DNA from: a virus
Virus record (IMG/VR): IMGVR_UViG_3300032236_001457
Location: 37,835 to 101,834 of that record
Length of the DNA stretch: 64,000 nt
Strand: one strand, 5' to 3'
Shown: positions 32,729 through 35,179 of the stretch, piece after piece
Numbering within the stretch: the first letter of the stretch is position 1
How the letters are laid out: the number at the start of each line of letters is the position of its first letter
Made by a program: the position numbers and the translations under genes
The notes under the pieces: generated by a model
Databases searched by the model: none
The model's input: the letters and a program-made list of their open reading frames with translations, nothing else
Told to the model about the DNA's origin: nothing

Positions 32729-32802
32729 TGGTAGCCCCTGACGGTAACGCTCCGCCGTATCCCACGTGTAAGGAGGGTGTTCTGCTTTTAAACTAAGGGG
32801 CC
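32729..32802 (-). tRNA. tRNA-Val(TAC), atypical T-loop
   Basis: GGCCCCT/AGGGGCT-ACCA acceptor, CTTACAC loop, T-loop AGCGTTA. Confidence 0.75.
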
Positions 32803-32999: not shown

Positions 33000-33242
33000 T
33001 TACTTAGTCTTTGTTAGGGGTGTTCGAACTTTTTTTAGGTATTCACGTCCGACCAATCCTGCTTCAATTTCTTGAAGTGCGCTAACGATTGGACCGTTGT
33101 TGGTATTTACTCGCTTGGCATCGCCGCGTTTAAGTTCTCGAGCACGAGCAGCAGCAATCAACACCATGTCAAATTTATTACCAACTTGGTGGGCAGCACG
33201 AATAACATCTACACTATTGGTCAACGCTTTAACTTTATTCAC
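33000..33242 (-). CDS. rpoZ: RNA polymerase omega subunit
   Basis: VGNKFDMVLIAAARAREL...PIVSALQEIEAG matches the omega signature; AAGGA SD before GTG. Confidence 0.85.
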   Translation of the reverse strand: MNKVKALTNSVDVIRAAHQVGNKFDMVLIAAARARELKRGDAKRVNTNNGPIVSALQEIEAGLVGREYLKKVRTPLTKTK

Positions 33243-33737: not shown

Positions 33738-34058
33738 ATATTGAAACACACTGCGGAAGGGCTTGCACCTTCACTTTGGCTTTCCTTTCGGATACCCCAT
33801 CAAAGACCTGTTGCGGACAATGTGTTTCCATATGGTGTCAGTGTTGCTGACTCGGGAATCCCGACGCCCAGTGCTAAGAGAACACCTATTCGTCACCCTA
33901 CTCTTACCATATGGAAACACACTATGCCACGCTCTGAACCTGGACTCTTAGTAATGTGTTTCAATATGGTGTCACTCTCCTGACCACTTTTAACGGAGGG
34001 GGTAGAGCCTTGAGTGACGTGTCTTAGACAGGCTTTATTCCTGGTTACGTAACCATTT
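33736..34058 (-). ncRNA. unidentified structured RNA cassette inside tRNA array
   Basis: Four copies of a 15-16 nt element in alternating orientation, internal hairpins, two stems ending in ACCA. Confidence 0.6.
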
Positions 34059-34143
34059 TGGTGGGAATGGTGAGACTCGAACTCACACGTCTTTCAACGC
34101 CAGAACCTAAATCTGGTGCGGCTGCCAATTACGCCACATTCCC
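34059..34143 (-). tRNA. tRNA-Leu(TAG)
   Basis: Class II cloverleaf, TTTAGGT loop, ACCA. Confidence 0.95.
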
Positions 34144-34155
34144 AATAATCTTTTT

Positions 34156-34447
34156 TGGTGCCCAGGGCGGGACTCGAACCCGCATGCCATTACAGCGAGA
34201 GATTTTCTTACCACTATAGTTTTCACTACCCTTTCAGTTTGTGGTCTGGACTATACCTTGACCGTTGCTTTCGCTTTAGGTCCTCGCCGTCTAGTCTCTA
34301 CACGTTCCTAACATTTCTATTAGGCTTCGCTCGGTATTAGCATTTTACAGCCTTCACCGAATTTGACGAGTTCTACTCCTGCCGTTTCCTGCAGGGCACT
34401 CAAATTTCTTTCAAGTCTCTTATGTCTACCGATTTCATCACCCGGGC
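34156..34447 (-). tRNA. tRNA-Leu(TAA), split by intron (exons 34413-34447 and 34156-34206)
   Basis: Joined exons give AGAGA-CTTAAAA-TCTCT anticodon arm and GCCCGGG/CCTGGGC-ACCA acceptor. Confidence 0.9.
34207..34412 (-). mobile_element. self-splicing group I intron (trnL-UAA type, 206 nt)
   Basis: 5' exon ends in U and intron ends in G; P/Q/R/S-like elements AAATTCGGTGAA, AATACCGAGC, GTGTAGAGACTAGACG, AAGGTATAGTCC; IGS GAGT pairs exon ACTT. Confidence 0.9.
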
Positions 34448-35056
34448 GGTTAATCGTTTTAATCTTTCGTAGTTTCCACCTTTAGCAGCAAGACCCACTT
34501 CTATTAACGCTTGTCTAATGTTACTACATCTTTCATATGCTGTCAATAGTTCTTGGTCAGTTACTTTAGGTTTTCCACTATTTTTATTTCTACCTTTGTA
34601 AGTATCAGTTTGGCTATGACAATTAGGGCAGAGGTATCTTAAATTTGTTAATCTGTTATCACGATTATTACCGTTGATATGATCAAGATCTAAAACAATA
34701 GTTTCTCCACACCATTCATTAATACCGCACTTGATACATTTATATTCTAACAAATTATCTTTTACGATCCTTTGCTTAACCATTTCGTTTGAATACAAAC
34801 TATTTTCTGTAAAGACCAATTCATTTGGGATTAAATTTTTACCTTTTGCCCAATTCATTTTATCTTTAGTTTCCTGCGGTAACCTGTTATAAACAGTTGT
34901 CGACGCAGGTCTTTTATTAGCAGTATAAGACAATTTGGTTTTTTCAGAATTGATTTTTTTCAAAACTTCACAACCAGATGGTCTTTTACTACAACAATTT
35001 TTACCATTTTTAAGAGTAAAATTTGCGGCTCTACTACATCCATAATCACATAACAT
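34400..35056 (-). CDS. HNH endonuclease overlapping tRNA-Leu 5' exon
   Basis: CIKCG...LDHINGNNRDNRLTNLRYLCPNCHS; N-terminal CDYGC. Confidence 0.9.
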   Translation of the reverse strand: MLCDYGCSRAANFTLKNGKNCCSKRPSGCEVLKKINSEKTKLSYTANKRPASTTVYNRLPQETKDKMNWAKGKNLIPNELVFTENSLYSNEMVKQRIVKDNLLEYKCIKCGINEWCGETIVLDLDHINGNNRDNRLTNLRYLCPNCHSQTDTYKGRNKNSGKPKVTDQELLTAYERCSNIRQALIEVGLAAKGGNYERLKRLTARVMKSVDIRDLKEI

Positions 35057-35150
35057 GATAATCTCCTGTTATGATTATTTATCTGGTAAAGACAAATTTT
35101 AACTTAAAACACAACTAATTTTTAAAGAACAATTAACTAACTAAGTATCT

Positions 35151-35179
35151 ATTGTATGACAACTATCTCACGCTGTCAA
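35151..35179 (-). promoter_or_regulatory. sigma70-type promoter for HNH/tRNA array
   Basis: TTGACA-17 bp-TACAAT. Confidence 0.7.

Follow-up and report, generated by a model that had tools for sequence, protein, structure and literature searches.

Group I introns of phages have usually been described in protein-coding genes according to a 2014 review (PMC3984707), while the survey from which the class name Leu.3Ug comes, with 5292 such introns located in the tRNA genes of bacteria, covered cellular genomes only (Williams 2020). Collaborative homing is an established pathway for free-standing endonucleases that lie beside endonuclease-less introns (PMC3984707, PMC2988022), and T4 mobE with the nrdB intron is an example of such collaborative or trans homing (PMC2790892). 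For the free-standing endonucleases of phage T4, embedded promoters, late expression, and insertion into the tRNA cluster are likewise established (PMC2988022). The ORFs of segG, segA, segE, mobB, and mobC contain the promoter of the downstream host gene (PMC2988022), and SegB, an enzyme of the GIY-YIG type, is a free-standing homing endonuclease encoded in the T4 tRNA cluster (Table 1 of PMC2988022; PMC13096335). Our literature search returned no description of phage tRNA genes with group I introns and none of an endonuclease (HNH) ORF ending inside a tRNA gene. Cyanophage psbA with the endonuclease F-CphI is reportedly another case of collaborative homing, attributed to work by Zeng, Bonocora and Shub in 2009, and Bonocora and Shub are said to have proposed a pathway in which a free-standing endonuclease and an ORF-less intron give rise to a mobile intron.

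The locus studied here has an intron of this kind and an HNH ORF that runs into a tRNA gene. It is located in a window of 64,000 nucleotides (the whole stretch of DNA that was analysed) from a 101.8-kb IMG/VR virus entry (IMGVR_UViG_3300032236_001457), which we take to be a fragment of a very large phage because its CheckV completeness is only 27%. The HNH ORF, the tRNA-Leu(UAA) gene, the intron, and all other features of interest lie on the minus strand (Table 1). In our view, the HNH gene, which is fused to the tRNA gene, likely encodes a free-standing homing endonuclease with specificity for tRNA-Leu(UAA) genes; the group I intron would be an intact element of its own to which the HNH gene is only loosely coupled.

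Table 1. Features of the HNH/tRNA-Leu(UAA) locus, in positions of the window
Feature	Position	Strand	Description
Promoter-like site outside the conserved cassette	35179..35151	-	TTGACA, 17 nt, TACAAT; 11/12 consensus match
Leader of the HNH cassette	35130..35057	-	TTTTAAGTTAAAA at 35109-35097; box GATAAATA at 35083-35076; Shine-Dalgarno AGGAG at 35067-35063
HNH ORF	35056..34400	-	218 aa, no stop codon of its own; ends in LTARVMKSVDIRDLKEI / GGNYERLKRLTARVMKSVDIRDLKEI before the stop
HNH ORF, codons 204-215			tRNA 5' exon
HNH ORF, codons 216-218 (KEI) and stop			intron sequence
Embedded sigma-70-type promoter (candidate)	34546-34518	-	TTGACA, 17 nt, TAACAT; starts 99 and ends 71 nt upstream of tRNA nucleotide 1
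tRNA-Leu(UAA)	34447..34156	-	ARAGORN with introns allowed: 206-nt intron after gene position 35
tRNA-Leu(UAA) 5' exon	34447-34413	-	35 nt, last base U34
D-loop codon TCG	34432-34430	-	TAG (stop) at the same place in most relatives
Group I intron	34412-34207	-	206 nt, ORF-less, IC3 trnL type, between U34 and A35, omega-G end
P1 3' strand, internal guide UUUGAGU	34404-34398	-	includes the HNH stop TGA (34402-34400)
tRNA-Leu(UAA) 3' exon	34206-34156	-	CCA encoded
tRNA-Leu(UAG), next gene of the array	34143..34059	-	anticodon 34109-34107

Some further features lie downstream. An 80-aa ORF within the tRNA array (33000-33242, minus strand) matches Pfam RNA_pol_Rpb6 (RNA polymerase omega subunit, RpoZ) with 45 bits against a cut-off of 26; its product is an omega homologue encoded by the phage. 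Where the array is interrupted for 320 nt (33738-34058), there are repeated 15-nt elements that are complementary to each other; no tRNA or intron was called in it, and Rfam gave spurious miRNA-like hairpins only. At 32732-32802 (minus strand), Rfam detects a tRNA with 42.8 bits that is absent from ARAGORN output with or without introns allowed.

A previous reading of this DNA (the sequence-only reading) had placed a 206-nt ORF-less group I intron after the first anticodon base, and all of its coordinates hold in ARAGORN with introns allowed (-i), in Rfam, and on the sequence itself. ARAGORN -i called tRNA-Leu(taa) with i(36,206) and the junction gactt-intron-aaaat, which also bears out the proposed insertion at the classical trnL(UAA) site, U34/A35, and thereby places the intron in the Leu.3Ug class. 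Default ARAGORN missed the split tRNA, and Rfam missed the intron at the gathering threshold. In a local search of 701 nt, RF00028 (Intron_gpI) gave a full-model match at 34422-34225 with 45 bits (E 3.5e-10), short of this family's gathering score of 50; the seed of the model has 12 sequences, with no bacterial one among them (Williams 2020). Read from the sequence, P1 pairs U34402 with intron G1, G34401 in a wobble with the splice-site U34 (34413), and A34400 with U33, and P1 in the Rfam alignment agrees with this pairing.

For the intron structure, we drew P1-P9 by hand with the P3/P7 pseudoknot and scored the drawing on 39 distinct aligned phage tRNA-Leu introns. Across these, 94.8% of the cells were paired, compared with 30-43% when partners were slid, and 27 of the 53 pairs showed compensatory changes on both sides; none of 500 shuffles reached the observed values. 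RNAalifold concurs for P2, P3, P4, P8, and P9. The window intron has both the U.G wobble that marks the 5' splice site in P1 and a terminal omega-G (G34207), and neither feature varies among the 39 relatives, and the P1 pairs U-1/G, U/A, and C/G do not vary across the 39 introns either. With a P3-P9 core and P3/P7 pseudoknot that are supported by covariation, the window intron is by all structural signs a genuine, conserved group I intron, beyond a chance match, and presumably self-splices.

Introns of this type are widespread. At least 120 IMG/VR stretches contain the 17-nt core word GTGTAGAGACTAGACGG; ARAGORN -i puts most of their introns into tRNA-Leu(UAA), at the same site, and others into tRNA-Met, Lys, Thr, Arg, and Phe. 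The word also turns up in bacteria of several phyla (at least 120 genomes), where it mostly lies within tRNA-Leu(UAA), in keeping with the bacterial survey (Williams 2020). On IMG/VR contigs, related phage introns were found in tRNA-Met(CAU) (L043, L058, L090, L112, L116, L117, and L134), tRNA-Lys (L049 and L101), tRNA-Thr (L127), tRNA-Arg(UCU) (L144), and tRNA-Phe (L074), while some ARAGORN calls of "Tyr-ata" or "Ser-aga" are tRNA-Leu(UAA) with an intron boundary that is off by 1-3 nt. Three published genomes have the same intron without annotation: that of the Agrobacterium jumbo phage Atu_ph07 and those of two huge phages, in one of which an HNH gene lies inside the intron. An Rfam search by E-value found no match at the loci of Atu_ph07, LR756501, and LR756511, yet the introns are clear by ARAGORN -i and alignment, and we read this null result as a limit of the filter and not as absence of the intron. 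In Atu_ph07 (MF403008.1; locus L001, record positions 110390-115678), the unannotated tRNA-Leu(UAA) with a 278-nt group I intron occupies positions 2501-2862 of the locus (minus strand), whereas the annotation in the record is a CDS for a "hypothetical protein" (AUZ94936.1) across the 3' exon. A 455-kb phage contig (L013 / L167) differs in that tRNA-Leu(UAA) begins 6 nt past the HNH stop and contains, at U34/A35, an insert of 71 nt without group I core and without terminal G; this insert may be the remnant of a deleted intron (which would make the gene a pseudo-tRNA) or an insert of another kind.

The HNH protein of the window belongs to a large family with more than 860 homologues and matches PHROG 10822 (E 1.5e-33) and PHROG 14736 (E 2.9e-30) at profile level. 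In an alignment of 41 sequences, C107, C110, H126, N138, C143, C146, and H147 show no variation or a conservation of at least 90%, and the H-N-H catalytic residues as well as two CxxC pairs of zinc ligands are kept in the window protein. The Pfam HNH models scored below their cut-offs (HNH_3 18.8 versus 24.8 and HNH 14.9 versus 21.4; PF01844 / PF13392), NCBIfam gave weak HNH-domain matches only (to ZorE and IscB), and a sequence search of the PDB gave no match. Foldseek against the PDB found nothing at E <= 0.001, and its weak top matches were HNH proteins (Cas9 HNH, McrA, Cap5, and Gme HNH). In the AlphaFold2 model (mean pLDDT 82), the part of the tail that is found family-wide prolongs the last helix, while residues 209-218, which are specific to the window, have a pLDDT below 50 and are predicted to be disordered. 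Homologues of the window HNH (E 1e-13 to 1e-21) are also encoded inside the long introns of phage tRNA-Leu genes, where they lie in sense or antisense orientation and have the module "IRQ..L...GL..KGGNY" on the N-terminal side, whereas it is C-terminal in the window HNH. Several family members of 161-171 aa (L009, L010, L165, L166, P0086, P0102, P0103, and others) come without the N-terminal Cys-rich domain of about 55 aa, and such members are found on intron-less and intron-containing alleles alike.

The tRNA-Leu(UAA) gene begins straight after the ...LKKLI codons, so that the ORF of the family has no stop codon of its own and translation would end at whatever stop the tRNA gene or the intron supplies. 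Searches with the HNH protein yielded 27 viral and 44 metagenome DNA loci, and counts of loci given here are those among the matches listed. This immediate junction is found in the window and in L005-L010, L014-L021, L153-L156, L160-L162, L165/166, and L174-L176, and in nearly all homologues the tail peptide is the translated 5' end of a tRNA (at least 92 of 120). In most members of the family, the stop is a TAG in the D-loop (GAAATAGGTAGAC); others stop at the TAA of the tRNA anticodon, past the anticodon, or within the intron. At five intron-less loci (L008, L020, L021, L175, and L176), the HNH stop is the anticodon TAA of tRNA-Leu itself.

In the window, TCG stands at the D-loop position where the nearest relatives have TAG, and this replacement makes the ORF ten codons longer, up to the first in-frame stop, which lies in P1. 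In our reading, the stop inside the intron is an incidental by-product of a single base change in the D-loop. That the HNH ORF reads through the whole 5' exon and takes its TGA from P1, as had been noticed before, is plain on the sequence, and the claim that the frame would enter the next tRNA after splicing is equally correct: The spliced frame would span 247 codons up to the TAG that forms the anticodon of tRNA-Leu(UAG). Read-through into the intron is seen in 17 of 120 homologue tails and at L162, which terminates with the same KEI and stop as the window, and at L142; since it recurs in several lineages, a function for read-through is possible. We also considered the tRNA-encoded tail as a functional extension of the protein and rejected this idea, given that the tail is lineage-specific and predicted to be disordered.

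Recurrent read-through is one of the observations that would be expected if intron and nuclease formed an obligate interlocked unit, with an HNH that cleaves trnL alleles devoid of the intron where it would insert, an intron that shields its own allele, and a regulatory stop in P1 that sets splicing, translation, and RNase P processing in competition. The same could be said of the wobble partner of the splice-site U, which is the G of the HNH stop codon, of the homology between the HNH and endonucleases encoded in introns of the same family, and of collaborative homing as an established pathway. We nevertheless judge this explanation unlikely on account of how HNH and intron are distributed. 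Among the matches listed, 14 non-duplicate loci at which the HNH precedes and abuts tRNA-Leu(UAA) have the intron and 10-11 do not; these intron-less fusions include L154, whose HNH is about 85% identical to that of the window. One of the remaining HNH loci adjoins tRNA-Leu(CAA), L013 and L157 lie apart from the tRNA, and a few are without any tRNA. The 120 protein tails gave a similar picture, with 17 for an intron, 13 against, and 75 undecidable. On a tree of 26 distinct HNH genes, intron state is scattered and requires 6 changes, which is no fewer than is typical for shuffled labels (71 of 500 shuffles gave a value as low). Also speaking against an obligate unit are the D-loop stop of most members, the predicted disorder of the extra tail, and an embedded promoter that uncouples tRNA transcripts from HNH translation (see below).

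The reverse view, from the intron, is no different: Among the matches listed, most intron-bearing tRNA-Leu loci located via the intron word have no HNH, and these HNH-less loci include the window's own intron subtype. Judging from these loci, the HNH gene belongs to the tRNA gene and not to the intron, and its presence on intron-less alleles about as often as on intron-containing ones means that the intron is not needed to protect the HNH gene's own copy. Among the matches listed, the interlocked unit proposed in the sequence-only reading is thus not a conserved design, and about equal occurrence with intron-less alleles is what that reading itself had named as speaking against it. Its suggestion of collaborative homing fares better in part. 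A free-standing HNH beside an ORF-less intron and its homology to intron-encoded HNHs make such homing plausible, but a consistent co-occurrence of the HNH with a self-protecting intron was not found among these loci. We do not regard collaborative homing as the organising principle of this locus, but with no more than 35 nt between intron and cassette it may plausibly happen now and then.

Several comparisons address the mobility of the HNH gene itself. Loci L155 and L009 share a common backbone and a 95% identical HNH 3' end through tRNA nucleotide 2, beyond which they continue into different tRNA-Leu alleles, of which only one has the intron. In blastn comparisons of the window with L005, L153, and L154, the left limit of similarity is the same for all three, 74 nt upstream of the ATG (35130), and the right limit is the tRNA 3' end (34156) or, for L154, 24 nt into the tRNA; the flanks of these three loci are unrelated to those of the window even by tblastx. 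These junction breakpoints favour mobility of the HNH cassette. Among close relatives, no HNH-less empty site in the window's backbone was found, as all flanks are unrelated and L155/L009 form the only syntenic pair, so that insertion and differential conservation are not separable for this particular phage. At other tRNA-Leu loci, L032 retains the last 12 nt of an HNH gene and L086 and L061 retain HNH fragments, which we interpret as visible gain, decay, and loss of the gene. Patchy presence, sharp cassette boundaries, and decayed copies are signs of a free-standing homing endonuclease, and they support the view that the HNH is a free-standing, horizontally mobile gene beside an ORF-less intron.

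The cassette appears to bring its own expression signals. In all relatives (46-95% amino acid identity), the leader has the same order of TTTTAAGTTAAAA, then (G/T)ATAAATA, then AGGAG, and the ATAAATA box is similar to the T4 late promoter, from which we infer a late-promoter role of the GATAAATA box in the window. A sigma-70-type promoter with a 10/12 consensus match is embedded in the 3' end of the HNH ORF, and TTGACA, 17 nt, and TAnnAT recur at the same place and spacing in at least 22 non-duplicate relatives that abut tRNA-Leu (with L013 6 nt off). The Leu171 codon is TTG in 25 of 25 genes and the sole invariant codon among 44 columns of conserved residues, and T, A, A, and T of the -10 hexamer are retained though the encoded residues vary. 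HNH relatives without a tRNA do not have the motif, and a consensus promoter is located 10-35 nt upstream at 31 of 57 HNH-less tRNA-Leu loci. The promoter-like site outside the cassette, at 35151..35179, showed no conservation in relatives. We consider the embedded promoter a candidate for driving the tRNA array. With such a promoter inside the HNH 3' end, most pre-tRNA would not have to be translated, and tRNA transcripts could be free of any translatable HNH message. This makes the earlier idea of a three-way competition between translation, tRNA 5' processing, and splicing weaker.

Strong conservation of the embedded promoter, together with a large, well-conserved family with invariant catalytic residues, would also be in line with a domesticated phage nuclease (e.g., directed against host or competitor DNA) that is retained because its 3' end supplies the promoter of the array. 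This explanation seems improbable to us, and slightly more so than an interlocked unit, in view of the patchy presence of the gene, truncated or deleted copies in related tRNA loci, sharp cassette boundaries within unrelated flanks, homology to intron-encoded endonucleases, and tight association with one tRNA gene. Loss of the family's usual stop and decayed copies elsewhere (L086 and L061) could still mean that the window ORF is a decaying gene with read-through as the first step of degeneration, but we give this very little credence since the ORF is not shortened, retains every conserved residue, is up to 95% identical to intact relatives, and is preceded by an intact Shine-Dalgarno sequence and late-type box.

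Our preferred reading, a free-standing endonuclease specific for tRNA-Leu(UAA), would thus involve two separate selfish elements, both on the gene with which a phage tRNA array begins. One would be the intact, ORF-less, and presumably self-splicing group I intron at the classical U34/A35 site, the other an HNH cassette composed of late-type box, Shine-Dalgarno sequence, and stop-less ORF with its right end at tRNA nucleotide +1. Most likely, the HNH recognises the DNA of tRNA-Leu(UAA) genes in phages without the HNH and would spread via break repair during co-infection, with the nearby intron being co-converted along with it but not required. The embedded promoter would replace the directly upstream promoter of HNH-less loci and drive the tRNA array. 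Early tRNA transcripts would then start inside the HNH ORF, lack the HNH start codon, and never be translated, and ribosomes would reach the 5' exon and P1 only on late transcripts of HNH length.

A broader version of this reading, which we put forward tentatively and as somewhat less probable than not, is that the HNH family is a dedicated homing endonuclease "capping" tRNA-Leu(UAA): It would land at +1, rely on the tRNA for a stop and for the final five codons, and take over the promoter of the array so that its loss becomes costly, and the intronic (in either orientation), separate, and fused forms would represent a series in which endonuclease and ORF-less intron merge into a mobile intron. 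If this is true, the pathway ascribed to Bonocora and Shub would become accessible to experiments in this system. The natural variants (fused, separate, and intron-encoded in sense or antisense, with or without intron) could be used to study the transition from free-standing endonuclease and intron to mobile intron and the way in which a selfish gene, through carrying the promoter of its host gene, becomes hard to lose. More generally, tRNA genes with group I introns and HNH-tRNA fusions are common in uncultured phages, and such introns go unannotated in sequenced jumbo phages like Atu_ph07 and are missed by standard tRNA finders. Annotation pipelines should therefore allow long introns in phage tRNA genes and expect ORFs that end within tRNA genes.

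Compared with the introns of bacterial trnL(UAA) genes, the window intron has the same insertion site (CUU/intron/AAAA), the same P1 U.G wobble, omega-G, and P3-P9 core, and the core word GTGTAGAGACTAGACGG that is found in bacterial genomes, but it resides in a phage genome. The pre-tRNA of the window is 83-88% identical to phage copies, which cluster together, and 69-75% identical to the best listed bacterial copies. Among the matches listed, these values lend no support to the notion of the phage as a vector for trnL introns, and we saw no sign of recent intron transfer between phage and bacterium.

Pairs known or reported for collaborative homing (mobE/nrdB and F-CphI) resemble the window in that a free-standing endonuclease, an HNH in the window, lies directly beside an endonuclease-less intron and in that introns of the same family harbour relatives of the enzyme. 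The window differs from these pairs in that its host gene encodes a tRNA, that the ORF overlaps the exon without a stop of its own, and that HNHs of the window type occur as readily with intron-less alleles. T4 SegB shares with the window HNH that a free-standing endonuclease gene is located in a phage tRNA cluster and probably targets DNA of the tRNA region, and it too has a predicted late promoter upstream; however, SegB is a GIY-YIG and not an HNH enzyme, and its gene lies between tRNA genes and has its own stop, whereas the window HNH is fused to nucleotide +1 and apparently specific for tRNA-Leu(UAA). With T4 segG, segA, segE, mobB, and mobC, the window HNH has in common an embedded downstream promoter, an arrangement thought to favour the retention of a selfish gene. 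Unlike in these T4 genes, the evidence for the promoter in the window comes from conservation at the codon level and not from transcript mapping, and the promoter would serve a tRNA array and keeps a fixed position across a family of 46-95% identity.
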